Shown here: one piece after another, positions 710 through 58,937 of the stretch
Layout: every line of letters starts with the position of its first letter
How positions within the stretch are numbered: the first letter of the stretch is position 1
Assembly: GCA_016709875.1 (NCBI GenBank)
Contig: JADJLZ010000009.1
Coordinates: 218,824-282,823, forward strand
Direction of reading: 5' to 3'
DNA from: Planctomycetota bacterium
Lineage (GTDB): Bacteria > Planctomycetota > UBA1135 > GCA-002686595
DNA: 64,000 nt
Program-made: the position numbers and the translations under genes
Notes under the pieces: model-generated
Told to the model about the DNA's origin: nothing
What the model saw: only the letters and a program-made list of their open reading frames with translations
Databases searched by the model: none

Positions 710-1548
710 TTCTTCGTCTCCGGCTTGGGAGCTTCCTTCATCGGGGCGTCGCTGGCCTTGTCGGAGGCCTTTTTCTCGGCCGGCATCTTCTGCTTCGCCT
801 TGGCCTCCTTGAGCGCCTCCTCGAGCTTCTTGACCTCGGCCTCGAGCTCGTCGAGCTCGTGCTCGGTCTTCTTGTTCTTGAGCTCGGTCTCCTGCTTGTT
901 GCGCTCCTGCTTGGCCTTGGCTTCGCGGTAGTCGCGCTCGGCGCGCTCGAGCTTGTGAGCCAGGCCGGCTTCCTTCTGGACGAGATCGAAGTCACGCTTG
1001 TTGGTGAACTCCTTCTGCGCCAGCTCGAGCCCGCGCGCGGCGAAGTCGACCATCGACTGGTGGCGCTGCACGACGAACTCCTTCGTGAGGTCGGCGAAGT
1101 CCTCGCTCTTGTAGAGCGCCTTGAGCTCGTCCAGCTCCTGGGTCTGCTCCTTCAGGCGCTGCTGCGCGCGGTCGATGTCGAGCTGTCCGTCGGCGAGCGC
1201 CGCGGGCAGCTGCACCGCCTTGAAGTTCTCGAACTCCTTCTGCGACAGCGCGCGGTCGAACTCCGCGTCTTCGACGTCGCTCTTCACGTCGCGCGCGGAG
1301 GCCTCGGTCGAGAGGCGCTCGATGCGCGCCTCCAGGCGTGCGCACTCGAGCTCGAACTTCTTCTTGTCGAGCGCCTTCGTCTGTGACTCGATGCCGGCGC
1401 CGGCATCCGTCTCGGGCGCGTCCGCGACCGGATGCGCGTTCGGGGCGGAGGGGCCGGCGGTCGAGCCCGAGCCCTGCGTGCTGGCGCACGCGGCGAGCAG
1501 GGAGAGAGCAGCGAGGGCAGGGGGCAGGAGGTGTGCGCGGACGTTCAT
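706..1548 (-). CDS. Coiled-coil lipoprotein (hypothetical)
   Basis: ATG at 1546-1548 gives MNVRAHLLPPALAALSLLAAC with lipobox LLAAC. The rest is E/K/L-rich heptad-like sequence. The ORF-track frame extends further 5' but has no signal peptide. Confidence 0.55.
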   Translation of the reverse strand: MNVRAHLLPPALAALSLLAACASTQGSGSTAGPSAPNAHPVADAPETDAGAGIESQTKALDKKKFELECARLEARIERLSTEASARDVKSDVEDAEFDRALSQKEFENFKAVQLPAALADGQLDIDRAQQRLKEQTQELDELKALYKSEDFADLTKEFVVQRHQSMVDFAARGLELAQKEFTNKRDFDLVQKEAGLAHKLERAERDYREAKAKQERNKQETELKNKKTEHELDELEAEVKKLEEALKEAKAKQKMPAEKKASDKASDAPMKEAPKPETKK

Positions 1549-7059: not shown

Positions 7060-7285
7060 CACTCGAACGTTCGAGCCCCGCGCAGCCCGCTCGGGTTCCG
7101 TTCTCCCGTCGATGGAGGCCGAGCGAATGGCTCGCACACCCCTTCGAAACTTCACTTCCCCGGCGGCTGGCGCGGGGCTTTTCCGACGTCCTCCCTGCGC
7201 ACTTCGGCTGCTCCAGCGCCCGCCCCTGCGCCCCTGCGCCCCTGCGCTCCCCGCCTCCCCTCGCCCTCCCACCCAACACTCCGCG

Positions 7286-7321: not shown

Positions 7322-7376
7322 AGCGTGCGGAGTCGCGGGGCGGCTGCGCCGCCCCGCCCTCACTTCCTTCCGCGCC

Positions 7377-8564
7377 TCACTTCTTCGGCTTGGGCTTGGG
7401 CTTCTCGCCCGCCTTGCCCTTCTCCGGCTTCTCGCCGCTCTTCGGCTTTTCCGCCGGCGCCGCCTTCGCCTCGGCGATCAACTGATCGACAGCCTTGTCC
7501 ATCTCTTCGCCGCGGACGTTCTTGAACCGGATCACGCCCTTCGCGTCGAGCACGTAGATCGTCGGCCAGCTCGAGACGCCCCACTTGGTCGGCAGCGGAC
7601 CAGCGGTGCTGCCTTCGATCGCCTGCCGCCAGGTGATCTGCTCCTTCTCCAGGATTCCCTTCACCTTCGCGGCATCGCCATCGCTGTTGATGCCCAGCAG
7701 CGCGAAAGGTTCGTTCTTCAAGCGCTCAACGAGCGCGCGTTCGTGCGGGATCATCGCACGACAAGGGGGTCACCACTCGCCCCAGAAGTCGATCACCACC
7801 ACTTTCCCGCGGTAGTCCTCGAGCTTCCACTTCGCGCCGTTCTCGTCGACGGCCTCGAATCCGGGCGCGGTCTTCCCGATGCTCAGATTGTCCGCGACGA
7901 ACAACCATCCATCGGCCATCCCGCCGTAGGTCTCCTCGCCCCACGGCAGCTTCAGCGTGCCGTAGTCCTTTTTCATCTTCTCGTAGAGCGCGTGCAGCTC
8001 TTCGGCATCCTCGCCCTTCTCGCCGCCGACCTTCTGCACCTCCATGAACAACAACGCAGCCGCGACCGGCTTGGTCTTGTTCTTGGCCTTCAACTCTTCG
8101 AGCGCCTTCGGCCCTTCCTTCTTGCCGAGCAGCTGACCCGCGGCGAACACCAGCAGATCCGCCTCCGGCGAATCCAGGTGCTCGGCCACCATCACCTTCG
8201 CCGCCTCTTTCGCGGCGTCCATGTCGCCCGCGTTGCCCGCGAGCAGCATGACCTGCTTCAGCGCCTTGGCCGCGGTCTCGCTGCCCTTGGCCTCCTCGGC
8301 GAGCGCCTGGTACTTGGGCAAGAACAGCTTGTCCGGGCTCTCCTCGCCGAGCTTCTCGCGCTCGTCGTCGTCCTTCGCGGACTTCATCTTCTCCTCGAAG
8401 CTCTTGCGCGCGAGCGCGAGCTCCTTGTCCAGCCCGGCAAGCTTCGTCGCTTGCGCGTCCGGACTGCCCTGCTTCGTCGGCGCCTGCAGCGTCGCGTGCA
8501 CGGGCAGCGCCCACGCACCCAGCGACGCTCCCAGCGCCATCAACCAGACAGCACTCCTCTTCAT
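7377..8564 (-). CDS. Periplasmic TlpA/ResA-like thiol:disulfide oxidoreductase (thioredoxin fold) with in-frame TGA at 7770-7772 in the redox motif (W-U-P-P-C); candidate selenoprotein
   Basis: ORFs 7770..9440(-) and 7377..7754(-) are in the same frame, separated only by TGA. The context ...VVVIDFWGEW[TGA]PPCRAMIPHERALVERLKNEPFALLGINSD... matches the TlpA-family pattern FW-x-x-W-C-x-P-C...LG(V/I)..D, with TGA at the first Cys position. Start ATG 8562-8564 (MKRSAVWLMALGASLGAWALPVHA signal peptide) has an AGGAGG RBS. Confidence 0.7.
7715..7765 (-). promoter_or_regulatory. Candidate bacterial SECIS stem-loop(s) immediately 3' of the UGA
   Basis: mRNA after the UGA reads cccccuuGUCGUGCGaugauccCGCACGAaCgcGCGCUCguuGAGCGCuug. 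Hairpin 1 is an 8-bp stem with a 1-nt bulge and loop AUGAUCC, starting 9 nt after the UGA. Hairpin 2 is a 6-bp perfect stem with apical loop GUU, about 30-48 nt after the UGA. Confidence 0.3.
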
Positions 8565-8605
8565 GGAAACCTCCTCCTCGGGACCATTCCCGATCTGCTT
8601 CGATC

Positions 8606-10642
8606 CTACTCGACCAACTTCATCTCCACATTCAACGCCCACGCGCCGTCGATCTGGAAATACTCGAGCTCGAGCTTGTGCTTGCCCGCGGTGAGCTCGA
8701 CCTGCGCCTCGTCGCGCGCCGGCGCGTGCAGGTCCCAGTGCTCGATCACCGTCTTGCCGTCCAGCCGCAGGCGCACGCCGTCGTCCGAGACCACCGCCAG
8801 CGCGAACTTTCCGCCCGCGTCGAGCTCGAACTCCGCCACAGCGCTCATCCCGAAGTGCGAATCGCCCACCGCCTTGCGCACCTGCGCATCGCCGCCCCAG
8901 GGGTCGACCCAGTTCGGACAGGTCTTCGTGATCGCCGGTTGCGTTCCCAGCGCGCGCCACTCGCGCTCCTTCTCGCGCGGATCCGGCCCGTCCCTCCACG
9001 ACCACCAGCTCCCGATCCACCTCACGTCCTTCAACAACCCGCCCGGCAGCCTCGGCTTGGGCCGCGGCTCGCCACTGCGGAAATCCCACGGTCCCCACTC
9101 GCCCATCACGATCGTGTTCAAGCCCTGCGTCTCGCCGCGATCCTTGGCGAAGACCACCAGCTCGCCCTTCACCTCGGGGCACTTCCAGGCGCGCGCCTTG
9201 CGCACCCACTCGGGCTCCTTGCCGTCCCAGCTGCTGAGCGTGCCGTCGCGCACCTCGCCGCTGGCGGTCTTGCCGTCGCGGCCGCGCATCCAGCTCGTCG
9301 CGTCGCCGCGCTCGACCTTCAGGCGCTCCATGCGCATGTCGCCGCCGCTGTCGTAGCTGTTGCCGCCGATGCGCAGCCCGGTCGTCTTGTTGACCACCAG
9401 ATCCTTGCCATTGCGCGCGAACGCGTTCCCGTAGACCCACGTGTCGCGCGAGCTCGTGTCGCGGTTCTGGCCGTAGACGCCCTCAACCAGCTGCTTGTCC
9501 TCGTCCCACCACAGCTCGACGCCGATCTCGTTGGCCTCGATCTGGTTCTCGACGATCGCGTTCTCCTGGCCGTGCTCGATGCTGACGGCACCGCCGAGCG
9601 TGCGCTCGATGTTGTTCCCGAGCACGACCATGCGCCCGGAGTACCCGCCCCAGATCCCGTGCTGGTGGCTGCCGTTGAGCGCGTTCGAGAGCACCCAGTT
9701 GTTCTTCGAGAAGGTGGCCTCGATCGCGTTCGCAACCGCGTACGAGAAGTCGTTGCGGTACCAGATGTTGTCGTCGCAGCCGCCGGCGTCGCGCTCGCCG
9801 CGCTTGAAGGCGTTGCCCTCGTCGACCGTGTCCAGGCCCGCGAACAAGAACACACCGTCCCCGCCGTGCGTGGCGCTGTTCCACGCGAACAAATTCTCGC
9901 TGCACCTCTCGAACATCAGGATCCCGGCCGAGTCCTGGCCGCGCCAGTAGACCCCGTCGCTGAAGCCGCGCACGCAGTAGTCGAACAGGCAGTGGCTCAC
10001 CACGAACTTCGAGGTGCGGTACAGCCCCAGGCCCCAGCCCGAGAGGAACGAGAAGTCGCAGTCCCAGACCTCCCCGCCCGTGCAGCGCGTCAACAGGATC
10101 CCGTTCTGGCCGCGCCGCCCGCGGCAGCCGTGGAGCGAGACGTTCCGGCAGTTCGAGAGGCTCGCCGCCGCGCCGTAGTCGCGCAGCCACTCGCCCTTGT
10201 CGTTGTGGTGCGGGTAGAGCCAGTCGCTGCCGTCCTCGTAGGCGACGTTCGACAGCAGGTGCTTGCCGTACCAGCCGTCGAAGCTGACGCCGTCGAGCGT
10301 GATCCCGTCGCAGTCCTGCGCGACCACGCAACCGCGGTAGCCGCCGATCGTCCCGCCCTTGAGCGTCACGTCGTGGCAGCCCACGAGCACGATCCCGTAG
10401 CCCTCGCAGCGGTCGAGGTCCGTGCCCGCAGGCACGCCGCGCAGCTCCACGCCGGTGAGATCGAGCGTGACGCCCTTCACCGCTTCGATGCGCAGCACGC
10501 CGCGCAGGCCGTCCTCGCCCTGAGGGGGCAGCAGGTACTTCCCGGGAGCGACTTTCGCGCTCTGCTGCACTTCGAGCGTCTGCCCGGCCACGGGTTTCAC
10601 GTCCGCCGTGCACACAACCAGCGCCAAGACTGCGATCAGCAT
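8606..10642 (-). CDS. Secreted parallel beta-helix (pectin-lyase-fold) protein with C-terminal PA14-like domain
   Basis: ATG 10640-10642 with an AGGAG RBS. MLIAVLALVVCTADVKPVAG signal peptide. Many beta-helix repeat turns (NGIL..., NAIVENQIEAN...). C-terminal ...GKHKLELEYFQIDGAWALNVEMKL is typical of PA14. Confidence 0.65.
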   Translation of the reverse strand: MLIAVLALVVCTADVKPVAGQTLEVQQSAKVAPGKYLLPPQGEDGLRGVLRIEAVKGVTLDLTGVELRGVPAGTDLDRCEGYGIVLVGCHDVTLKGGTIGGYRGCVVAQDCDGITLDGVSFDGWYGKHLLSNVAYEDGSDWLYPHHNDKGEWLRDYGAAASLSNCRNVSLHGCRGRRGQNGILLTRCTGGEVWDCDFSFLSGWGLGLYRTSKFVVSHCLFDYCVRGFSDGVYWRGQDSAGILMFERCSENLFAWNSATHGGDGVFLFAGLDTVDEGNAFKRGERDAGGCDDNIWYRNDFSYAVANAIEATFSKNNWVLSNALNGSHQHGIWGGYSGRMVVLGNNIERTLGGAVSIEHGQENAIVENQIEANEIGVELWWDEDKQLVEGVYGQNRDTSSRDTWVYGNAFARNGKDLVVNKTTGLRIGGNSYDSGGDMRMERLKVERGDATSWMRGRDGKTASGEVRDGTLSSWDGKEPEWVRKARAWKCPEVKGELVVFAKDRGETQGLNTIVMGEWGPWDFRSGEPRPKPRLPGGLLKDVRWIGSWWSWRDGPDPREKEREWRALGTQPAITKTCPNWVDPWGGDAQVRKAVGDSHFGMSAVAEFELDAGGKFALAVVSDDGVRLRLDGKTVIEHWDLHAPARDEAQVELTAGKHKLELEYFQIDGAWALNVEMKLVE

Positions 10643-10711
10643 CCTGAATTCTCCTTCGTTCGCTCCGAGCGTACCGAACGCGCCCGGCATCCCCTATCCT
10701 GTTCCCCCCGC

Positions 10712-16778: not shown

Positions 16779-17512
16779 GAATTGGGCTCCTGAATATCCG
16801 GCTCGGTCGGGGGGGTGCCGGTGAGCTCCAGACGGTAGCCGACGCCGGCCTCGTTGTGGAAGAACCGGCCGCGCGCGGGATCGGGTTCGAGCTTGCGCCG
16901 CAGGTGCGTCATGTAGACGCGCAGGTACTGCGTCTCCTCGGCCGACTGCGGTCCCCAGACCTCGGTCAGCAGCTGGCGGTGAGTCACGACGCGCCCGGCG
17001 TGGCGCGCGAGCACCGCGAGCAGCCGGAACTCGATCGGCGTGAGGCGCACCTCCTGGCCGTCGAGCTCCACGCGCCGGAGTGCGAGGTCGATCTTCAGCG
17101 GCCCCTGCGTCAGCACGCTCTCCTCGGGTCCTTCGGGTCGCGCCGCGCGCCGCAAGGCCGCGCGCATGCGCGCCATGAGCTCGGCGAATCCGAACGGTTT
17201 CGTCAGGTAGTCGTCTGCGCCCGCATCGAGCGCTTCGACCTTGTTGCGTTCCTCGCCGCGTGCCGAGAGGACCAGCACGGGCACTCGGCTCCAGGTCCGC
17301 AGCCGCTGCACGACCTCGGTGCCGTCCATGTCCGGCAGACCCAGGTCGAGCAGCACGACGTCGGGCACGTGCTGCGCCGCTTCGCGCAGGCCGAGCGCGC
17401 CGGTTTCAGCCTCGATCACCGCGAAGCCGTGTGCCTTGAGGCTGGTGCGCAGGAAGCGGCGCAACTGCGGCTCGTCCTCGATCACGAGCACCAGCGGTTC
17501 GGTCGACTTCAC
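16775..17512 (-). CDS. kdpE: KDP operon response regulator (OmpR family)
   Basis: GTG start overlaps the kdpD stop (GTGA). Receiver (LVLVIEDEP...VLLDLGLPDMDG) plus winged-helix output (...LTPIEFRLLAVLARHAGRVVTHRQLL...). Sits next to kdpD. Confidence 0.85.
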   Translation of the reverse strand: MKSTEPLVLVIEDEPQLRRFLRTSLKAHGFAVIEAETGALGLREAAQHVPDVVLLDLGLPDMDGTEVVQRLRTWSRVPVLVLSARGEERNKVEALDAGADDYLTKPFGFAELMARMRAALRRAARPEGPEESVLTQGPLKIDLALRRVELDGQEVRLTPIEFRLLAVLARHAGRVVTHRQLLTEVWGPQSAEETQYLRVYMTHLRRKLEPDPARGRFFHNEAGVGYRLELTGTPPTEPDIQEPNS

Positions 17513-20208
17513 GGCGCATCCTCTTGCCGTCTCGCCGGGGGCGGCGGCACTTTCGTGACGGGCAGGCGCATACGGAACGTCGCGCCCCCGCCGAGCCGGT
17601 TCTCGGCCACCACGCTGCCGCCGTGCGCCCGCAGGATCGCGCGGCAGACCGAGAGCCCCAGGCCCGAGCCGCCGGCACGCTTGCCGTCCGGCAGGCGCAC
17701 GAACTTCTCGAAGATGCGCTGCTCCTCGCCGGGCGGGATGCCGGGCCCGCGGTCGGAGACCTCGATCAGGACTTCGCCCGGGCCGCCGCTCGAGCGCAGT
17801 TCGATCGGCGAACCGCTCGGGCTGTACTTGAGCGCGTTCTCGACCAAGTGCACCAGCGCCTGCTCGATCAGCACGGGATCCACGTGCGCCTGCAGGATCT
17901 CGCGCGGCAGTTCGAGCTCGAGCTTGCGGCCTGCGAGGCGTTCGTGAAGCCGGTCGAGCGCGCCGTGGACGAGTTCCTCGACCGGGCACCACTCGCGCCG
18001 CGGCTGCAGCGCGCCCGAGTCCAGGCGCGTCAGATCGAGCAGGTTCGAGACGAGTTCGGAGAGGCGCTGGCTCTCCGACTGGATCGTCTCCAGGAGCTCG
18101 TTCTGCTCGATCCGGCCGATTCCCGCGCCACCCGCGAGCAGCACGCCGGCCGAGCCAGCGATGGAAGCGAGCGGCGTGCGCAGGTCGTGCGAGACGCTCG
18201 AGAGCAGGTCGGTGCGCAGGCGCTCGGTCTCGACGGCGCGGCGCGCCTCGTCGGCCTCGGCACGCAGGCGCACCCGCTCGAGCGCGAGCGCAGCCTGCGC
18301 GACGAAGGTGTCGAGCATCTGGTGATCCGAGGGCCGCAACTCGCGTCCGAGCGCGCCGAGCATCACGCCCATGACTGCGATGGTGCCGCGCGGCACGCTC
18401 ATCGGCAGGTAGAGAGCCCTGGCTGCCGGCAGCGTGTCCGTGCCGAAACCGGCGCGCTTGTCGTTTTCGAACACCCAGCGCGCGACGGCAACCTCGCGCT
18501 CGTCCTCGGCCTGCCAGCCCTCGGTGCTGGCGGTCGCGCGCAGGCCACCGCCGGGCTCGGGCAGGAACAGACAGGCCTCGGCCAGCAGCAGGTCGCGGAC
18601 GCGCTCGACGCTCGACTGCGCGATCGCGGACGGATCGTCCTCGACCGCGAAGGCGCGCGTCATGGCATACAGCGCCGCCGTGCGCCGTTCGCGCTCCTGC
18701 GAGGCCGCGGCCTGTTCGCGGATGACCACGGTGCGCTGACTGGCGATGAAGCCCACGACCAGCATCACGGCGAAGGTCAGGACATGGTGCAGGTCGCTGA
18801 CGGCGAAGGTGTAGTACGGCGGGATGAAGAAGAAGTCGAAGCTCGCGACGCTGGCCAGCGTGGCAACGAAAGCCGGCCCGCGACCGGCGATGCTGGCCGA
18901 GATCAGCAGCGCCAGCAGGTTGATCATCGCGTGGTCTGCGATGTTGAGCGATTCGCGCGTGGCCATGCCGACCAGCACGGCCAGCGCCACGGGCACGAGC
19001 GCCAGCGGGTACTCGCGCAGCGGCGTCGCCAGCGGCGTGCGCGGCGCGAGCTTCTGCGCCAGGTCGTCCTGGATCCCGGGCGTGACGAGCACCTCGAGAT
19101 CCTCGGCGCGACGCACGAGTTCGTCCGCGAGCGACGCAAAGAGCGCCGCGAGCGGGCCGCGCCGGCGCGATCTGCCCACCACGACACGCGTCACGCCGCG
19201 ATCGCGAGCCACATGCAGGATCTGCTCCGCCGCTCGCTCGCTGCCCACCACCAGGCTCTCGCCGCCGAGCTGGCGCGCGAGCTCGAGCAGTTCCGAGACC
19301 TCGCCGCGCGCTTCGTCCGAAAGTCGCTCGATGCGCTCGGACTCGGGCACGAGCGCGATCCACGGCGCGCGCAGCTCGACGGCCAGGCGCCGGCCGGCGC
19401 GCAGCACATCCAGCGCCCGCGCGCCGGGCTGAAGCACGATCAGGATGCGCTCGCGCGCTCCGGCGCCGGGCCGACGGCCCTGCGCGCGGCGGTACTCGGT
19501 GGCCTGCTGGTCCACGCGCTCGGCGGTCTTGCGCAGGGCCAGCTCGCGCAGCGCGATCAGGTTCTCCTTGCGGAAAAAGCTCTGCAGTGCGCGCTCGGCC
19601 TGGGCCGGCACGTAGACCTTGCCCTCGGTCAGGCGCGCGAGCAGCTCGTCGGGCGGCAGGTCGACGAGCTCGATCGCGTCGGCGCGCTCGAGAATCGAGT
19701 CGGGCACGGTCTCCCGCACACGCACGCCGGTCAGGCGCTCGACCACGTCGTTGAGGCTCTCGACGTGCTGCACGTTGAGCGTGGTGTAGACCTCGATACC
19801 CGCGTCGAGCAGCTCCTCCACGTCCTGCCAGCGCTTGGCGTGCCGCAACCCGGGCGCATTGGTGTGCGCCAGCTCGTCGAGCAGCAGCAGGCCGGGCTTG
19901 CGCGCCAGCGCCGCGTCGAGATCGAACTCCTCGAGCACGATGCCACGATGCTCGACGCGCTTCGGCGGCAGCTGCACCAGCCCCTGCGCCAGGTGCTCGG
20001 TTTCCGCGCGGCCGTGCGTCAGCACCACGCCCACGAGCACGTCCGTCCCGCGCGCTGCACGCGTGCGCGCTTCCTCGAGCATCGCGTAGGTTTTCCCCAC
20101 GCCGGGCGCCATGCCGAAGAAGAGCTTGAGCCGGCCGCGCGTCGCCTGGGCCTTCTCGCGCGCAATGCGCGCGAGCAGTTCCTCGGGGCTCGGACGCGTG
20201 TCGCTCAT
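17509..20208 (-). CDS. kdpD: Sensor histidine kinase KdpD
   Basis: 899 aa. N-terminal KdpD domain (LKLFFGMAPGVGKTYAML), USP-like region, four TM helices, HisKA (SHDLRTPL) and HATPase domains. Confidence 0.9.
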   Translation of the reverse strand: MSDTRPSPEELLARIAREKAQATRGRLKLFFGMAPGVGKTYAMLEEARTRAARGTDVLVGVVLTHGRAETEHLAQGLVQLPPKRVEHRGIVLEEFDLDAALARKPGLLLLDELAHTNAPGLRHAKRWQDVEELLDAGIEVYTTLNVQHVESLNDVVERLTGVRVRETVPDSILERADAIELVDLPPDELLARLTEGKVYVPAQAERALQSFFRKENLIALRELALRKTAERVDQQATEYRRAQGRRPGAGARERILIVLQPGARALDVLRAGRRLAVELRAPWIALVPESERIERLSDEARGEVSELLELARQLGGESLVVGSERAAEQILHVARDRGVTRVVVGRSRRRGPLAALFASLADELVRRAEDLEVLVTPGIQDDLAQKLAPRTPLATPLREYPLALVPVALAVLVGMATRESLNIADHAMINLLALLISASIAGRGPAFVATLASVASFDFFFIPPYYTFAVSDLHHVLTFAVMLVVGFIASQRTVVIREQAAASQERERRTAALYAMTRAFAVEDDPSAIAQSSVERVRDLLLAEACLFLPEPGGGLRATASTEGWQAEDEREVAVARWVFENDKRAGFGTDTLPAARALYLPMSVPRGTIAVMGVMLGALGRELRPSDHQMLDTFVAQAALALERVRLRAEADEARRAVETERLRTDLLSSVSHDLRTPLASIAGSAGVLLAGGAGIGRIEQNELLETIQSESQRLSELVSNLLDLTRLDSGALQPRREWCPVEELVHGALDRLHERLAGRKLELELPREILQAHVDPVLIEQALVHLVENALKYSPSGSPIELRSSGGPGEVLIEVSDRGPGIPPGEEQRIFEKFVRLPDGKRAGGSGLGLSVCRAILRAHGGSVVAENRLGGGATFRMRLPVTKVPPPPARRQEDAP

Positions 20209-20768
20209 GCGGACGGCGCGCAGCCTAGCAGGTGTTGCGATCGCGCTCCAGCCCGGCCAGCGCGTGCCGCGCGCGGATCAGCGCCGACGATGGCGCGAGC
20301 CGATCCGTGCACGGCCGTGCTGTGACAGCCAGAGCACGCTCGCGTAGATGGCGATCGGGATGCCGGAGATGAGAAAGTCGATCCGCATGTGTCCTCCAGG
20401 CCCAGCTGCACGATGCGGACGCGTTTACGAGCTGCCAGGACTCGGCCCGCGAGCATCCATTCTCCGCTAGAGCGCAGCGCACACGCAGTGCGTGAGCTCC
20501 GAGCGCAGGGCCCACTCGATCCGGTGCTTCGGCGCGTGTTCGGCTCGCGCCGGTTGCCGCGCGCCCACAAGGCCGCGAGCAAGACTTTTCCTGCGCATTC
20601 ACGCACAACCCGCTCGTTTTAGCAGCTCATTAACGCGCGCAGACCCTAGCCTCTGCGGCATGTTCCTCGAGCCCTTCTGCCTGGCGAGTGCGCTCGCCTT
20701 CTTCACCTTCCTCGGCTGGATCGTCGGCCGCATCGCGGACCACCCGCCGGAAGGACAGCGGTGATCCC

Positions 20769-20861
20769 ATGACCATCGTGCACTGGATCGCCGCCCTCGT
20801 GACCTTGGCCCTCTTCGTCTACCTCTTCGTCGCGCTCTTCAAACCCGAGAGCTTCGACTGA
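20769..20861 (+). CDS. kdpF: K+-transporting ATPase subunit F
   Basis: 30-aa hydrophobic peptide MTIVHWIAALVTLALFVYLFVALFKPESFD, 12 nt upstream of kdpA. Confidence 0.6.
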   Translation: MTIVHWIAALVTLALFVYLFVALFKPESFD

Positions 20862-20873
20862 GCGGAATCCGCC

Positions 20874-22580
20874 ATGAGCTGGCTGCAAATCCTCTTCTAT
20901 CTGGTCGTACTCGTCGTGCTGGCCAAGCCGCTGGGCGGATTCATGGCGCGCATCTACGAGGGCGAGATGCCGGCCTGCGCGCGCTGGCTCGCCCCGCTCG
21001 AGCGCGCGATCTACCGCTTCTGCGGCCTGCGCGCCGACCAGGAACAGGGCTGGAAGTCCTATGCCGGCGCGATGCTGGCGTTCAACCTGCTTGGGCTGCT
21101 CGCCGTCTACGCGCTGCAGCGTCTGCAAGGCTTCCTGCCGCTCAACCCGGCGCACATGGCCGCGGTCTCGCCTGACTCGTCGTTCAACACCGCGGTCAGC
21201 TTCGCGACGAACACCAATTGGCAGGGCTACGGCGGCGAGACCACGATGAGCCACCTGACGCAGATGCTCGGTCTCTCCGTGCAGAACTTCGTCTCGGCCG
21301 CTTCGGGCATGGCGGTGCTGGTAGCCCTGGCGCGCGGATTCACGCGCAAGTCGAGCTCGACGATCGGCAGCTTCTGGGTCGACCTCGTGCGCTCGACGGT
21401 CTACATCCTGCTGCCCCTGTCGATCGTGCTGGCGCTCGTGCTCGTCTCGCAGGGCGTCGTGCAGAACTTCGCGGCACCGGTCGTGGCGCACACTCTGCAG
21501 GGCGCCGAGCAGTCGATCTCGATGGGGCCGGCGGCCTCGCAGATCGCGATCAAGCAGCTGGGCACGAACGGCGGCGGTTTCTTCAACGTGAACTCCGCGC
21601 ACCCGCTCGAGAACCCGACGGCCTTCTCGAACCTGCTCGAGATGCTCTCGATCCTGCTGATCTCCGCCGGCTTGTGCTTCACCTTCGGCAGGCTCGTCAA
21701 GGACAAGCGCCAGGGCTTGGCGCTGCTCGCCAGCATGCTGATCGTGCTCGCACCCTGCATCGTGATGGTCCAGCTCTTCGAGCAGGCGGGAACGCATGCG
21801 CAGCAGCTGGCGGGTGTCGAGCTCTCGGCCGCTGCAGACCAGCCCGGCGGCAACATGGAGGGCAAGGAGCTGCGCTTGGGTATCGCCAACTCGGCCATCT
21901 GGTCGGTAGCGACCACGGCCGCCTCGAACGGCTCGGTCAACGCGATGCACGACTCGTTCACGCCGCTGGGCGGCCTCTGGCCAATGTGGCTGATCCAACT
22001 CGGCGAGGTGATCTTCGGCGGCGTCGGATCGGGCCTGTATGGCCTGCTGTTGTTCGCGATCGTGGCCGTCTTCGTCGCGGGGTTGATGGTCGGACGCACG
22101 CCCGAGTACCTGGGCAAGAAGATCGGCGCGTTCGAGATGCAGTGGGCCTCGTTCGCGATCCTCGCGCCGTGCGTGGCGGTGCTGTTCGGCACGGCGGTCG
22201 CGGTGCTGCTCGATGCGGGCCGCGCCGGCGTCGCCAACCCGGGCGCGCACGGGTTCAGCGAGATCCTCTATGCCTTCAGCTCGGCCGGAAACAACAACGG
22301 CAGCGCCTTCGCCGGTCTTTCGGCCAACACGCCCTTCTTCAACATCGCGCTGGGCTTCGCGATGCTCGTCGGGCGCTATCTGGTCATGCTGCCCGTGCTG
22401 GCGATCGCCGGCGCGCTGGCCGCGAAGAAACTCGTGCCCGCCGGACCGGGCACGCTGCCGACGCACGGCCTGCTGTTCGTCCTGCTGCTCGTCTCGACCG
22501 TGCTGCTCGTCGGGGCCCTGACCTTCATCCCCGCGCTGGCCCTGGGTCCGATCGTCGAACAGCTGCAGATGCTGCACTGA
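20874..22580 (+). CDS. kdpA: Potassium-transporting ATPase subunit A
   Basis: [31 protein letters not shown]... Full-length KdpA (568 aa). Confidence 0.9.
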
Positions 22581-22587
22581 GAGCGCC

Positions 22588-24648
22588 ATGTACAAGAAGA
22601 ACCTCTTCGATCCCGCGATCACGCGCCGCGCCGTGCGCGACAGCTTCCGCAAGCTCGATCCCCGGCTGCAGATCCGCAACCCCGTGATGTTCGTCGTCTG
22701 GGTCTGCGCCGTGTTCACCAGCGCGCTCGCGCTGCAGGCGCTGCTCGGTCACGGCGAAGCGCCCTTCGGCTTCATCCTGGCGGTCTCGCTCTGGCTCTGG
22801 ATCACACTGCTCTTCGCCAACTTCGCCGAGGCCCTGGCCGAGGGGCGCGGCAAGGCGCAGGCGGAATCGCTGCGCAAGACGCGCCGGGACGTGCAGGCCA
22901 AGCGCCTGCTCAACGCGAAGGACCGCACCCGTCACGAGAGCGTTTCCGCGCCGAGCCTGCGCAAGGGCGAAGTCGTGCTGGTCGAGGCCGGCGATGTGGT
23001 TCCTTGCGACGGCGAGGTGCTCGAGGGCGTCGCCTCGGTGGACGAGAGCGCGATCACCGGCGAGAGCGCGCCGGTGATCCGCGAGTCGGGCGGCGACCGC
23101 AGCGCCGTCACGGGCGGCACGCGCGTGCTCTCGGACTGGCTGGTGGTGCGCGTCGCCGCGAACCCGGGCGAGGCCTTCCTCGACCGCATGATCGCGCTGG
23201 TCGAGGGCAGCAAGCGCCAGAAGACGCCCAACGAGATCGCGCTCGGGATCCTGCTCGCGGCGTTGACGATCGTGTTCCTGCTCGCGACCGCGACACTGCT
23301 GCCCTTCTCGGCCTTCGCCGTGCACGCCAGCGGGCAGGGCCAGACCGTCACGGTCACGGTGCTCGTGGCCCTGCTGGTGTGCCTGATCCCGACCACGATC
23401 GGCGGATTGCTCTCGGCCATCGGCATCGCCGGGATGGATCGCATGATCCAGGCCAATGTGATCGCCAATTCGGGTCGCGCGGTCGAGGCCGCGGGCGACG
23501 TCGACGTGCTGCTGCTCGACAAGACCGGCACGATCACGCTCGGCAACCGCCAGGCAGTCGAGTTCCTGGCCGCGCCTGGCGTCACGCCGGAAGAACTGGC
23601 CGATGCGGCGCAGCTCTCCTCGCTGGCCGATGAGACACCCGAGGGACGCAGCATCGTGGTCCTGGCCAAGGAACGCCACGGTTTGCGCGAACGCCGAATC
23701 CAGGAGATCGGCGCGGTCTTCGTACCGTTCACCGCTCAGACGCGCATGAGCGGCGTCGATTTCGAGGGCCGCCAGATCCGCAAGGGCGCCGACGACGCGA
23801 TCGCGGCCTGGATCGCGTCGCGCCGCGGCAGCCTCGCGCCCGAAGTGCGCGCGCAGGTCGAACGGATCGCTCGCGGAGGCGGCACACCGCTGCTCGTGGC
23901 CGAGGGCGACCGCGTCCTGGGCGTGATCCACCTGAAGGACGTGGTGAAGGGCGGCATCCGCGAGCGCTTCGGCGAATTGCGGCGGATGGGAATCCGCACG
24001 ATCATGATCACCGGCGACAACTCGCTCACCGCCGCCTCGATCGCCGCCGAGGCCGGCGTGGACGACTTCCTCGCGCAGGCGACGCCCGAGGCCAAGCTGG
24101 CCCTGATCCGCGAGCACCAGTCGCAGGGCCACCTGGTCGCGATGGCGGGCGACGGCACCAACGACGCACCCGCGCTGGCACAGGCGGACGTCGCCGTAGC
24201 GATGAACAGCGGCACGCAGGCCGCCAAGGAAGCCGGCAACCTGATCGACCTGGACTCGAATCCGACCAAGCTGATCGAGATCGTCGAGATCGGCAAGCAG
24301 ATGCTGATGACGCGCGGCTCGCTGACCACGTTCAGCATCGCCAACGACGTGGCCAAGTACTTCGCCATCATCCCGGCTGCGTTCGCGCTGACCTACCCCG
24401 AGCTGAAGTCGCTCGACGTGATGCACCTTGCTACGCCCGCCTCCGCGATCCTCTCCGCGGTGATCTTCAATGCGCTGATCATCGTCTTCCTGATCCCGCT
24501 GGCGCTGCGCGGGGTCGCCTACCGGCCGATCGGGGCGGCGGCGCTGCTGCGCCGGAACCTGCTGGTCTACGGTCTGGGCGGCCTGGTCGTGCCCTTCGCG
24601 GGCATCAAGCTGATCGATCTCGCGCTTTCCAGCCTGGGCCTCGCATGA
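22588..24648 (+). CDS. kdpB: Potassium-transporting ATPase subunit B (P-type ATPase)
   Basis: [10 protein letters not shown] phosphorylation motif and [15 protein letters not shown]. 686 aa. Confidence 0.9.
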
Positions 24649-25220
24649 AGGAGTCCTCCATGTTCAAGCAACTCAACGTCGCCGCGCGCATGCTGCTCGT
24701 GCTGAGCCTCCTGACCGGCGTGCTCTACCCGCTGCTCGTGACCGTGCTGGCCCAGTTGTGCTTCCACTCGCAGGCGAACGGCAGCCTGATCGTCGAGGGT
24801 GAGGTGCTGCGCGGCTCACAGCTCGTCGGCCAGTTCTTCGACGATTCGAAGTTCTTCTGGGGCCGGCTCTCGGCCACGACCCCGCCCTACAACGCCTCGG
24901 CCTCGAGCGGCTCCAACCTCGGGCCGACGAATCCGGAGCTCTCCCGGATCCTGAAGGAGCGCATCGACCGGCTGCGCGCGTTGCCCGGCGGCGACGCGCC
25001 GATCCCGGTCGATCTCGTGACGGCCTCCGCCAGCGGGCTGGACCCCGACATCAGCCCGGCCGCGGCGCGCTTCCAGATCGCGCGCGTGGCGGCGGCGCGC
25101 GGCTTGCCACCCGAGCGCGTGCACGCCCTCGTGGAGCAGCACGTCGAGGGCCGTTGCCTGGGATTCCTCGGAGAACCGCGCGTCAACGTCTTGGAGCTGA
25201 ATCGTGCGTTGGTACGCTAG
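24645..25220 (+). CDS. kdpC: Potassium-transporting ATPase subunit C
   Basis: ATGA overlap with kdpB. 191 aa. ...[21 protein letters not shown]... typical KdpC C-terminus. Confidence 0.85.
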
Positions 25221-48163: not shown

Positions 48164-48241
48164 ATGGTGACGCCATGGGGATTTGAACCCCAGTCGCCAG
48201 GATGAAAACCTGGTGTCCTAGGCCTGGCTAGACGATGGCGC
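48164..48241 (-). tRNA. tRNA-Glu (anticodon UUC)
   Basis: The reverse complement folds as a cloverleaf: GGCGCCA acceptor, D-arm GTCTAGCCAGGCCTAGGAC, anticodon loop UUUUCAU (UUC), T-arm GGGTTCAAATCCCC, encoded CCA. Confidence 0.75.
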
Positions 48242-48318
48242 CACGTGTTCGATTCGCCTCCGCAGAGCCTCGCGGCGCTTCGGAGAGGGCAGAAAGGTAG
48301 GGTCCGCACCCCCCACTG

Positions 48319-55517: not shown

Positions 55518-55593
55518 TGGTGACCGCGGAAGGGCTCGAACCTTCGACCTGATGATTAAGAGTCACCTGCTCTACCAACTGAGCTACGCGGCC
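55518..55593 (-). tRNA. tRNA-Lys (anticodon CUU)
   Basis: The reverse complement GGCCGCGTAGCTCAGTTGGTAGAGCAGGTGACTCTTAATCATCAGGTCGAAGGTTCGAGCCCTTCCGCGGTCACCA folds as a cloverleaf with anticodon loop CUCUUAA. Confidence 0.85.
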
Positions 55594-55663: not shown

Positions 55664-55739
<76 letters not shown>

Positions 55740-56363: not shown

Positions 56364-57080
56364 TCAACTCCGGATCCTCGTGCCCAGCGTCTCGCCGCGC
56401 ACGACGCGTTCGAGATTGCCCTCTTCGAACATGTTGAAGACGACGACGGGCAGGCGGTTCTCCATGCACAGGGTGATCGCCGTGCCGTCCATCACGCCCA
56501 GGCCCTGCTGGAGCACCTGCATGTAGGAGAGCTCCTCGTAGCGCTTGGCGGACTTGTCCTTCTTGGGGTCGGCGGTGTACACGCCGTCGACCTTGGTGCC
56601 CTTCAGCAACACCTCGCAGGAGAGCTCGGTCGCGCGCAGCGCGGCGGCCGTGTCCGTGGTGAAGAAGGGATTGCCCGTGCCCGCGGCGAGGATCACGACG
56701 CGTCCCTGAGTGAGGTGCGCCAGCGCGCGGCGGCGCACGAAGGGCTCGGCCACCTGGCGGATCTCGATCGCGGTCTGCACGCGCGTCTCCAGGCCCTGCT
56801 GCTCGAGCGCGTCCTGCAGCGCGAGTGCGTTGATGACCGTGCCGAGCATGCCCATGTAGTCGGCGCTGGCGCGCGGGGCGCCGAGCTTGGAGAACTCCGC
56901 GCCGCGCAGGATGTTGCCCCCGCCCACCACGATCGCGAGCTCGACACCCAGGCCGGCGACGCGCGCGACCTGGCGCGCGATGACCTGCACGGCCTCCGGA
57001 TCGATGCCGTGGCCGCTCGAAGGATCGCCGAGGGCCTCGCCGGAGAGCTTGAGCAGGACGCGCTGGTACGAGGTGGCCAT
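56364..57080 (-). CDS. pyrH: UMP kinase
   Basis: …[12 protein letters not shown]…[11 protein letters not shown]… are the UMP kinase signatures. Confidence 0.9.
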
Positions 57081-57163
57081 GCAGGGATCGCGGTCAGGAG
57101 AGGGAACGGGCGCCGGTCCCCAAGGATAGGGAACCGACGCCCGGATTTCAGCACCGGAGGAGG

Positions 57164-58015
57164 CTACTTGCCGATCTGGACGCGCGTGAAGGCCACGATC
57201 TTCGTGCCCTTGCCGAGCGCATCCTCGAGGACCTTCTGCACGGTCTTCGAGTCGTCCTTGATCCAGGGCTGCTCGGGCAGCACGCGCGCGGCGTAGAACT
57301 TCTCGAGCTTGCCGGCGACGATCTTCTCCTGCATCTCGGCCGGCTTGCCCTTGACCTCTTCGAGGTAGATCGCCTTCTCGCGTTCCACGTCCTCGGCGGG
57401 CACCTCGGCGCGCGTCACCGCGGCCGGGTTGTGCATCACGATGTGCATCGAGAGCTCGCGCAGGGTGGCGACGGCCTTGTCTTGCGGACCGCTGGTCGTG
57501 ACCGAGACGAGCGCGCCCTTCTTCTGGTCGTGGTGCACGTAGAAGCCCACGAAACCCTGGGCGTTCTCGTAGCGCGCGAGGCGCGCGACCTTGATGTTCT
57601 CGCCGGTCTTGCCGGAGAGCATCTTGGCCGAGTCCTCGACGCTGTTGCCCGAGGGCAGCTTGGCGGCGTTGAGCGCCTCGGCGTTCGAGAGGCCGGACTG
57701 CACCGCCAGCGCGGGCAGGCCGCCGAGCAGCGACTGGAACTCGTCGTTGCCGGCGAGAAAGTCCGTCTGGCAGGTCATCGCGACCAGCGCACCCTTGCGC
57801 GCGGTGGAGTCGACGTGCACCGCGACGCGGCCTTCGCCCATCTCGCGGTCAGCCTTCTTCTCGGCCGACTTCATGCCCTGCAGGCGCAGGAGGTCGACAG
57901 ACTTCTCCATGTCGCCGCCGGTCGCGGCGAGCGCCTTCTTGCACTCCATCATGCCCTGGCCGGTCCGCTCGCGCAGGTCGGCCACCATCTTCGAGGTGAT
58001 CTCCATCGTGCTCAT
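57164..58015 (-). CDS. tsf: Elongation factor Ts
   Basis: …[20 protein letters not shown]… is the UBA-like N-terminus of EF-Ts. Confidence 0.9.
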
Positions 58016-58049
58016 CGTGTGCTGGGGTTTGGGGAGCCGAGCGCGGAGC

Positions 58050-58937
58050 TCAGGTCTCCTCGGGGGCCGGGGTGGCGAGCTTGTCGAGGCCGCCGGAGAG
58101 GCCGGTGGACTCGGAGCGGCGTCCGCGCGCGAAGCGGCCGGACATGTTCTCCGGCATGCGGTTCTTGCCGGTCGGACGCGGCTCGTCGCCGCTGCGCGGC
58201 TGCGGGTCGTCGGAGTGCTTCTCGGCCGCGCCGGTGGTGGCCATGCGCTCGCGGTGGTTGGCGGCGCCTTCCTCCACGGAACGCACGAGGTTGTCGAGGA
58301 TCAGGCGCACCGACTTCAGCGCGTCGTCGTTGCCCGGGATCACGATGTCGATGCCGCTGGGATCGCAGTCGGTGTCGAGCACGCCGATCACGACCAGACC
58401 CATCTTGCGCGCTTCCTTGACCGCGTTGGCCTCGCGCGCGGGATCGACCACGACCATCGCGCCGGGGATCGTCGTCATCTCGCGGATGCCGCCCAGGTTG
58501 CGCACGATCTTGCGCCGCTCGCGGCGCAGGCTCGAACCCATCTTCTTCGAGTACTGGTTCATGCCGCCTTCCTCTTCCAGCTTCTCGAGCTCCTCGAGGC
58601 GCTTCAGGCGGCTGCGGATCACGGAGAAGTTGGTCAGGGTGCCGCCGATCCAGCGCTCGGTGACGATCGGCATGCCGGTGCGCTCACCGGCGTCCTGGAT
58701 GACGCCCTTCACCTGGCGCTTGGTGCCGACCCACAGGACGTTCGAGCCCTCGGCGGCGAGGTGGTAGAGCAGGTTCTTCGCGCGCAGGATCCCGCGCAGC
58801 GTCTCGCGCAGATCGATGATGTGGATCAGGTTGCGGCGGCCGTGGATGTACGGCGCCATCTTCGGGTTCCAGCGCGCCACGCGGCAGCCAAAGTGCACAC
58901 CCGCATCGATCAGTTCTTGGAGGTTGATGTCTTGCAT
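58050..58937 (-). CDS. rpsB: 30S ribosomal protein S2
   Basis: …AGVHFGCRVARWNPKMAPYI…, with an acidic C-terminal extension. Gene order rpsB-tsf-pyrH-frr is conserved. Confidence 0.9.
   Translation of the reverse strand: MQDINLQELIDAGVHFGCRVARWNPKMAPYIHGRRNLIHIIDLRETLRGILRAKNLLYHLAAEGSNVLWVGTKRQVKGVIQDAGERTGMPIVTERWIGGTLTNFSVIRSRLKRLEELEKLEEEGGMNQYSKKMGSSLRRERRKIVRNLGGIREMTTIPGAMVVVDPAREANAVKEARKMGLVVIGVLDTDCDPSGIDIVIPGNDDALKSVRLILDNLVRSVEEGAANHRERMATTGAAEKHSDDPQPRSGDEPRPTGKNRMPENMSGRFARGRRSESTGLSGGLDKLATPAPEET

Follow-up and report, generated by a model that had tools for sequence, protein, structure and literature searches.

Layout of the locus and of its predicted protein

The sequence analyzed here, referred to as the window, comprises 64,000 nucleotides (nt) of a Planctomycetota bacterium (assembly GCA_016709875.1, contig JADJLZ010000009.1, positions 218,824 to 282,823). 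Its subject is a minus-strand gene at 8564..7377, in which a TlpA-like thioredoxin-fold domain is interrupted by an in-frame TGA at 7772..7770. An initial annotation, made from the letters alone, had proposed that this codon specifies selenocysteine (Sec, or U) in the active site of a UxxC-type TlpA/redoxin selenoprotein. The proposal was supported by the conservation of the TGA in all orthologs examined, by purifying selection on the downstream frame, by RNA hairpins, and by genes for the selenocysteine transfer RNA (tRNA-Sec) that neighbor members of the family. The region is regarded with high confidence as a single gene whose UGA is decoded as Sec. The features of the gene, all on the minus strand, are as follows.

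7377..8564, minus: complete predicted selenoprotein gene in a single frame, 395 codons plus a TGA stop at 7379..7377
8570..8579, minus: Shine-Dalgarno-like GAGGAGGAGG, 5 nt upstream of the ATG at 8564 (read from the sequence)
8493..8564, minus: predicted cleavable signal peptide, residues 1-24, cleaved after ...VHA and before T (sequence features only)
7887..8462, minus: N-terminal all-alpha TPR-like helical-repeat domain, residues ~35-226, nine helices (AlphaFold2, predicted local distance difference test score (pLDDT) ~98)
7491..7880, minus: TlpA/ResA-like thioredoxin-fold domain, residues 229-358, including the cis-Pro motif WPT (Pfam and PDB matches)
7770..7772, minus: in-frame UGA, predicted Sec codon, residue 265, nucleophile of U-P-P-C (sequence and ortholog conservation)
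7761..7763, minus: TGT codon of the resolving Cys of UxxC, residue 268 (sequence)
7380..7472, minus: Lys/Pro/Glu-rich low-complexity C-terminal tail, residues ~365-395, AAPAEKPKSGEKPEKGKAGEKPKPKPKK (sequence)

The frame from 8564 to 7377 contains 396 codons including the stop, and the TGA is its sole interruption, in the context ...GKVVVIDFWGEW-TGA-PPCRAMIPHERALVERLKNEPFALLGINSD... or, read from further upstream, ...YRGKVVVIDFWGEW-[TGA]-PPCRAMIPHERALVERLKNEPFALLGINSD.... The initial annotation had started from two mechanical open reading frames (ORFs), 7770..9440 and 7377..7754, and ORF comparison confirmed that they lie in one frame. The extent of the former did not hold, as it runs upstream into the 3' end of the neighboring gene and the real start is the ATG at 8564. 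The good ribosome-binding site and the signal peptide that had been claimed were both recovered, the one as GAGGAGGAGG at 8579..8570 ahead of this ATG, and the other as a plausible Sec-pathway-like N-terminus (MKRSAVWLMALGASLGAWALPVHA) with the VHA/T cleavage site, implying periplasmic export if the prediction is correct. A downstream terminator had also been claimed and was not borne out: the strong GC hairpin at ~7359..7335 is without a U-tract and was not called by a consensus scan. Past this hairpin, units of the GCAGGGGC type are repeated in a short tandem array (GCGCAGGGGCGCAGGGGCGCAGGGGCGGGCG) in the intergenic region, at 7205-7262 of the window, minus strand. Public annotation splits the gene into a 264-residue product (NCBI MBK7644330.1, 'MAG: redoxin domain-containing protein [Planctomycetes bacterium]', where MAG denotes a metagenome-assembled genome) and a 125-residue ORF. 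The former is the window's own truncated call, and was recovered as P0001 in a protein search with the read-through sequence.

Profile and structure-database searches were performed with the read-through protein, in which U was replaced by C. Residues 229-358 matched the Pfam families AhpC-TSA (PF00578; 3.9e-19, 69.3 bits, cut-off 26), Redoxin (PF08534; 9.4e-17, 61.6 bits, cut-off 26.6), and Thioredoxin_8, and the best matches among solved structures were ResA (4nmu, 3.1e-16) and TlpA (1jfu, 2.1e-9), together with oxidoreductases of the DsbE type. The placement of the TGA on the first Cys of a CxxC motif, as originally claimed, was confirmed by alignment: U faces the first Cys of ResA 4nmu (FWGTWCKPC), and U265 stands opposite Cys in the Cys-form homologs P0015, P0019, P0021, and others. 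The active site thus reads W-U-P-P-C, with U in place of the first Cys of the TlpA-like W-C-x-x-C, and the WPT motif aligns with the LPT cis-Pro loop of 4nmu.

The AlphaFold2 model covers the 264-residue called product, the part before the UGA, with low pLDDT for residues 1-30. A Pfam search of the N-terminal helical domain gave no match, and a PDB fold search gave weak TPR-like matches (best E=0.037). The arrangement of a helical N-terminal domain followed by a TlpA-like domain is common to the Cys-form homologs. At the other end, the tail of ~30 residues is absent from the orthologs, which end ...AEAKAK. Scores against NCBIfam models were under the cut-offs for ResA (NF002854, 70 vs 170 bits), TlpA (NF047696, 45.3 vs 230), and DsbE/CcmG (TIGR00385, 44.5 vs 123). 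Because these scores are well below all cut-offs, the protein is regarded as a TlpA-like family member that is an ortholog of no characterized enzyme. Two selenoprotein redoxin models also remained below cut-off (NF041054 WAxxUGC_long, 26.3 vs 300 bits; NF053656 redoxin_TUGYCR, 24.2 vs 100 bits), and the window motif FWGEW-U-PPC differs from both the WAxxUGC and the TUGYCR signatures.

Conservation of the UGA and of the frame beyond it

The UGA is conserved, and purifying selection acts on the frame beyond it, which is translated. In an independent Logan assembly of the short reads of SRR11674038 (L213), 1897 of 1898 nt are identical to the window and the TGA is reproduced; it is therefore not an assembly error. 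Gene calls in all of the seven closest relatives (46-66% identity) terminate at ...IDFWG[D/E]W. The TGA occupies the same codon in five of five independent orthologous loci (46-66% protein identity), after which the frame runs on through ~100 strongly conserved codons, U-[PGS]-P-C-[RV]-A-M-I-P-H-E..., and split gene calls at the TGA recur in all orthologs. The order of genes is common to the window and L001, and consists of a dTDP-sugar isomerase, HEAT, NadA, the NosD/beta-helix/PA14 gene, the selenoprotein gene, and, further on, an aldehyde dehydrogenase; L003 shares the downstream part.

The same codon was observed on a broader scale. A metagenome scan, seeded from an N-terminal alignment and using peptide patterns that exclude the critical codon, identified 86 sites in 80 loci, and TGA was present in 86/86. 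The DNA pattern FWG[D/E]W-TGA-xPC was found in more than 119 stretches of species-representative genomes, where the estimated chance expectation for such a pattern (20-base-equivalent) is ~1 match in 596 Gb. These stretches include 124 TGA sites, after 117 of which the frame stays open for at least 100 codons; six of the remaining seven reach the edge of the locus and one stops after 36 codons. Planctomycetota lineages are named in the labels of 64 of the 80 genome loci listed, and Verrucomicrobiota in those of 9. Cys-form paralogs were absent among ~200 related loci, and the Cys-form pattern had 0 matches in viral contigs.

Between the window and its orthologs, the ratio of nonsynonymous to synonymous substitution rates (dN/dS) is 0.21-0.27 after the TGA versus 0.46-0.73 before it, with an amino-acid identity of 76-81% after and 46-60% before. 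By this measure, no part of the protein is more constrained than that beyond the 'stop'. A reassigned genetic code is excluded because TGA is the commonest stop in this window of 70% GC (53 of 97 coding-like ORFs) and also ends the selenoprotein gene. A screen based on GC content at third codon positions returned six other same-frame TGA junctions in the window, which appear to be ordinary adjacent genes or a non-coding frame; none resembles a second selenoprotein gene.

Several variations were observed among the family members. Matches in L009, L012, L020, L021, and L031 come from MAGs whose labels read Paceibacteria, Bacillota, Proteobacteria, Deltaproteobacteria, or Akkermansia muciniphila; as all other members of the family fall in Planctomycetota and Verrucomicrobiota, mis-binning or mislabelling may be the cause. 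The protein P0057 starts just past one UGA and runs up to another in a second FWGDW-UGA, suggesting a polypeptide that carries two Sec-TlpA domains. In P0016, a Cys-form domain precedes a Sec-truncated one, and P0007-P0010 have a second, degenerate domain that is Cys-less. Multi-domain or multi-copy arrangements were found in loci L026, L038, L072, L086, L093, L099, L131, L139, and L150, and two or three tandem Sec paralogs in several genomes. Close homologs in which the nucleophile is missing carry Ser (P0014, WSDEC; P0018, WSEPC) or Gly (P0017, WGSAC) at the Sec/Cys position, and are possibly inactive or dependent on a single Cys.

Hairpins after the UGA, selenium genes, and other window content

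Conserved hairpins lie within the coding sequence after the UGA. The published consensus for the bacterial selenocysteine insertion sequence (SECIS; bSECIS for the bacterial form) has an apical loop of 3-9 nt, an upper stem of 4-16 bp, a G in the first two loop positions, a distance of 16-37 nt from UGA to loop, and a minimum free energy (MFE) of -7.5 kcal/mol or lower (PMC13188914, Fig. 2). The main family, defined by the peptide U-xPC-R-A-M-Y-P-H-E-R-S-L-V, includes 171 distinct sequences. A hairpin at +26..+41 (A26-U41 to C31-G36, 6-7 bp, -10.5 kcal/mol) is paired in 170-171 of the 171, and its apical loop GGUC at +32..+35 lies 31 nt from the UGA, so that it falls within all four published bSECIS criteria. 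The codons GAG CGG UCG CUC are used in 171, 171, 171, and 169 of the 171 sequences, and five wobble positions in the hairpin are fixed at 97-100%, whereas flanking wobble sites vary freely. Of four Cys-form homologs encoding the identical HERSLV peptide, two deviate from these codons (CGC...CUA; GAA CGU; Fisher p=0.002). The Cys forms L206 and L209 keep the exact GAG CGG UCG CUC hairpin, possibly as a fossil SECIS from a recent Sec-to-Cys change.

The SECIS of E. coli fdhF, the archetype of the bacterial Sec insertion elements to which SelB binds, provides a reference for these elements. Its loop, read from NC_000913.3, is AGGUCU, and therefore contains the GGUC of the main-family loop; both are coding-sequence hairpins downstream of a UGA. 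They differ in position, with the loop at +32..+35 in the main family and at +19..+22 in fdhF. The window's clade departs further from fdhF: its loop is a GUU/GUG triloop that occupies +40..+42, at a distance of 39 nt from the UGA.

This clade is defined by AM[IL]PHE[RK]xLV...LLGINSDG and contains 20 distinct sequences. A GGUC hairpin of the main type was ruled out for the window (-1.8 kcal/mol), where the helix is broken by an A30·C37 mismatch. The same break occurs in 17/20 clade sequences, because a rare GAA codon is conserved. Instead, the GCUC strand of the clade pairs with a downstream GAGC, forming hairpin 2. The elements of the window are listed below.

7719..7739, minus (+31..+51 after the UGA): hairpin 2, best SECIS candidate of the clade, -9.8 kcal/mol
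7741..7761, minus (+9..+29 after the UGA): hairpin 1, 7-bp stem, loop AUGAUCC, -10.7 kcal/mol, z=-3.99
7707..7769, minus: rare-codon cluster in the 21 codons after the UGA (CCT, TGT, CGT, GAA, GTT, TTG, GAA, CCT)

Hairpin 2 has a 6-bp upper stem (G34-C48 to C39-G43), the loop GUU (7730..7728), and the lower pairs C31-G51 and G32-U50. Over 18 clade sequences, its pairing is kept in 88.9% of cells versus 35-53% in controls with a shifted partner strand, and MFE folding recovers it for 19/20 clade sequences. Two-sided pair changes were found in L174 (G-C to U-A) and L134 (C-G to A-U). Hairpin 1 is also present in most clade members with shifting registers; a single conserved register was ruled out, as its pairing is 61.9% with no covariation. 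With modest confidence, slightly above an even balance, hairpin 2 is taken as the likeliest SelB-binding element, and hairpin 1 is possibly an accessory or alternative part of the recoding signal. The window sequence does show nucleotide-level selection just after the UGA, on the rare-codon cluster: 8 of the 21 codons are rare versus ~2.4 expected (binomial p=0.0013), which ties the gene's maximum for any 21-codon stretch.

Together, the two groups of sequences suggest a SECIS 'strand swap' within one family, which is put forward tentatively and with less than even confidence. The clade would have disabled the GGUC helix and re-paired the GCUC strand downstream, so that a GUU/GUG triloop is presented 39 nt from the UGA, behind hairpin 1. 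If hairpin 2 or the two-hairpin unit does bind SelB, a SECIS would have been relocated in nature while the coding sequence stayed fixed, and current search models would miss this class of SECIS.

Genes for selenium use were found next to members of the family in related DNA. Among 1.24 Mb of such DNA, five metagenome loci of the family encode a tRNA-Sec, identified by both ARAGORN and Rfam RF01852 (59.7-66.7 bits, gathering threshold 47), on the minus strand relative to the family gene.

L153, 521-617, minus: tRNA-Sec
L155, 303-398, minus: tRNA-Sec
L164, 428-524, minus: tRNA-Sec
L165, 730-826, minus: tRNA-Sec
L177, 669-765, minus: tRNA-Sec

These genes are divergent, lie ~1-1.8 kb upstream of the TGA of the family gene, comprise four distinct sequences, and account for 5 of only 15 tRNAs in the 1.24 Mb. 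In L164 and L165, the tRNA-Sec is adjoined by a SelD homolog with its own in-frame UGA at the active site SSCAG-U-ASK. The gene neighborhood in these relatives' loci ties the family to selenium use. L164 also has a match to the Rfam Acido-Lenti-1 small RNA (1044-1089, minus strand; 45.5 bits, gathering threshold 37) between the tRNA-Sec and Sec-TlpA genes.

The remainder of the window contains the following features. Apart from the Pfam-based upstream neighbor and the tRNA genes, the assignments are based on resemblance at the N-terminus.

8606..10690, minus: upstream neighbor, NosD/beta-helix/PA14 protein (Pfam), 41 nt from the selenoprotein start
17509-20208, minus: KdpD-like sensor
ending at TGA 20859: KdpF-like short ORF
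20874-22580: KdpA-like
22588-24648: KdpB-like
24645-25220: KdpC-like
48165-48242: tRNA-Glu(UUC)
55518-55593: tRNA-Lys(CUU)
55664-55739: tRNA-Lys(UUU)

The NosD/beta-helix/PA14 neighbor may be co-transcribed with the selenoprotein gene. The features at 17509-25220 resemble a Kdp potassium-transport cluster, and the same-frame TGA junction between the KdpF-like and KdpA-like genes was rejected as a recoding site, being an ordinary stop. ORFs at 56364-58937 appear similar to pyrH, tsf, and rpsB, and would represent ordinary housekeeping content.

Interpretation, alternatives, and relation to known selenoproteins

Members of the TlpA, ResA, and CcmG family are exported reductases of disulfides or oxidized cysteines in envelope proteins. 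By analogy, the window protein would have such a role in the envelope. The proposal is that the gene encodes an exported protein of ~395 residues, in which a signal peptide and a TPR-like helical domain precede a domain of the TlpA/ResA type with a U-P-P-C site. SelB carrying Sec-tRNA(Sec) would bind a hairpin downstream of the UGA, most likely that at 7739..7719 with the loop GUU, and Sec delivery at the UGA would compete with RF2. In the periplasm, the selenolate of Sec265 would attack a substrate disulfide, or a sulfenic or oxidized-metal-site cysteine, to form a mixed selenenylsulfide. Cys268 would then resolve the selenenylsulfide, and a membrane electron shuttle of the CcdA/DsbD type would re-reduce the U-C pair. 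The TPR-like domain is a plausible docking module and would probably recruit a protein substrate. With selenium or the recoding machinery in short supply, translation would end at the UGA and give the 264-residue product found in databases.

A number of observations weigh against decoding of the UGA as Sec through these elements. As the initial annotation had stated, and as the tRNA search, Rfam, and tblastn bore out, neither SelA, SelB, and SelD (tblastn) nor a tRNA-Sec was found within the 64-kb window. Both Sec decoding in the window's own organism and the redox partner, substrate, and export route of the protein are drawn by inference. No curated NCBIfam model recognizes the protein and no Rfam model its RNA element; specifically, no SECIS family reached its gathering threshold over the window, and permissive E-values over 7600..7850 were at chance level only. 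The initial annotation had looked to a stable SECIS-like hairpin after the UGA, and RNA folding did reveal such hairpins, but neither hairpin of the window falls within all four published bSECIS criteria. The loop, stem, and energy of hairpin 2 are within the consensus, but at 39 nt from the UGA its loop exceeds the range by 2 nt. For hairpin 1, the stem and energy are within the consensus, but the loop has no G before position 3 and is separated from the UGA by 15 nt. The covariation of hairpin 2 consists of two single-sequence compensatory changes among 18 sequences, a level reached by 18/500 shuffles. Finally, in synonymous-codon resampling with window codon usage, where the pairing is largely dictated by the peptide, hairpin 2 had p=0.18, with no significant separation from peptide-dictated pairing (hairpin 1, p=0.049).

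Three other explanations were considered. An improbable one is that the UGA is recoded not, or not only, as Sec, either by a suppressor or variant tRNA that inserts Cys, Ser, or Trp, or in a selenium-dependent switch between truncated and full-length products. Termination at the UGA is the default when SelB-dependent decoding fails, so both products probably exist, and the natural homologs P0014, P0018, and P0017 do have Ser or Gly at the Sec position. However, bona fide tRNA-Sec genes (Rfam RF01852) and a SelD that contains Sec adjoin members of the family, a canonical GGUC hairpin of the SelB type is present in the main family, and the replacement of CxxC by UxxC is the standard pattern of bacterial selenoproteins.

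The second explanation, also raised by the initial annotation and judged very improbable here, is a pseudogene, in which a nonsense mutation from TGC or TGT to TGA inactivated an ordinary TlpA-like gene. It would fit with the failure to find Sec machinery in the window and with the handling of the gene as truncated in public annotation. Such decay was expected to appear as stops or frameshifts in relatives, and the opposite was seen: the codon is TGA in every ortholog examined and in over 200 members of the family, with no TAA, TAG, or frameshift in the orthologs or at the 86 metagenome sites. The downstream 125 codons, moreover, are intact and form the most constrained part of the protein (dN/dS 0.21-0.27), and the hairpins and the rare-codon cluster are conserved directly after the TGA. 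The pseudogene alternative is effectively refuted by the conservation of the TGA.

The least credible explanation invokes two functional genes, namely a secreted 264-residue TPR-like protein and a 125-residue fragment initiated separately from the ATG at 7754; although gene callers predict this pair in every ortholog and there is a conserved Met at 7754, the single-chain Cys forms conserve this Met to the same degree (CRAM[YI]PHE), no Shine-Dalgarno sequence precedes 7754, the remainder of the thioredoxin fold would be cut off from beta-strand 1 and the active site, the conserved xPC codons would go untranslated, and the C-terminal fragment would have no signal peptide.

The preferred reading, a single gene with a Sec-decoded UGA, places the protein among known systems. 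UxxC thioredoxin-fold proteins are the commonest class of predicted bacterial selenoproteins. TlpA-like UxxC families have been catalogued, one of which was traced to a 2005 Sargasso Sea study, as has a 'Prx-like thiol:disulfide oxidoreductase' (PF00578, UxxC; Kryukov and Gladyshev, 2004) (PMC13188914, Table 1). With these families, the window protein shares the PF00578 AhpC-TSA fold, Sec for the first Cys of CxxC, a hairpin just past the UGA, widespread Cys-form homologs, and an annotation split into two ORFs. In contrast, it has an N-terminal TPR-like domain of ~200 residues and a predicted signal peptide. Its group is centered on Planctomycetota and Verrucomicrobiota and has the signature FWG[D/E]W-U-xPC-[RV]-AM-[YIL]-PHE, the comparison with the catalogued families being by description only.

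Within the same phylum, split 'thiol-disulfide isomerase-like thioredoxin' selenoprotein candidates were described in the planctomycete P1 from Porphyra (Kim et al., 2016, PMC4807772, S9 Table). The Porphyra planctomycete host has a full Sec-insertion gene set, and no SECIS was reported for either of the two thiol-disulfide isomerase-like candidates (PMC4807772). Likened by description, the P1 candidates agree with the window gene in phylum, annotation class, split-gene appearance, and Cys forms as the closest homologs. They differ in the RNA element, which is a canonical GGUC hairpin in the main family and a covarying hairpin in the window's clade.

Among characterized enzymes, TlpA of Bradyrhizobium, ResA of Bacillus, and CcmG/DsbE share with the window protein the thioredoxin fold, the W-C/U-x-P-C motif, the cis-Pro WPT, and an extracytoplasmic location, which is predicted for the window protein. 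In contrast to these enzymes, it has Sec as the nucleophile and an extra N-terminal helical-repeat domain. A scan of seven flanking genes (1.1-16.8 kb) revealed none for the maturation of cytochrome c or copper sites.

The window gene is an additional member of the already published TlpA-like UxxC selenoproteins, which include planctomycete candidates, and current understanding is not overturned by these findings. The present analysis adds the extent and sequence signature of the Planctomycetota/Verrucomicrobiota group, the canonical GGUC hairpin of that group, the alternative pairing in the window's clade, and the selC/selD neighborhood. Within the family, nature provides two different SECIS solutions that can be compared on almost identical coding sequence. 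Like the window gene itself, its hundreds of relatives in MAGs of Planctomycetota and Verrucomicrobiota appear in databases as truncated 'redoxin domain-containing' proteins with an orphan ORF of ~100 residues behind them, and recognition of FWG[D/E]W-TGA-xPC together with the GGUC hairpin would correct many of these records and flag the genomes as Sec users. For the biology of these bacteria, the family suggests the use of selenium in envelope thiol-disulfide chemistry, often through several tandem paralogs per genome.

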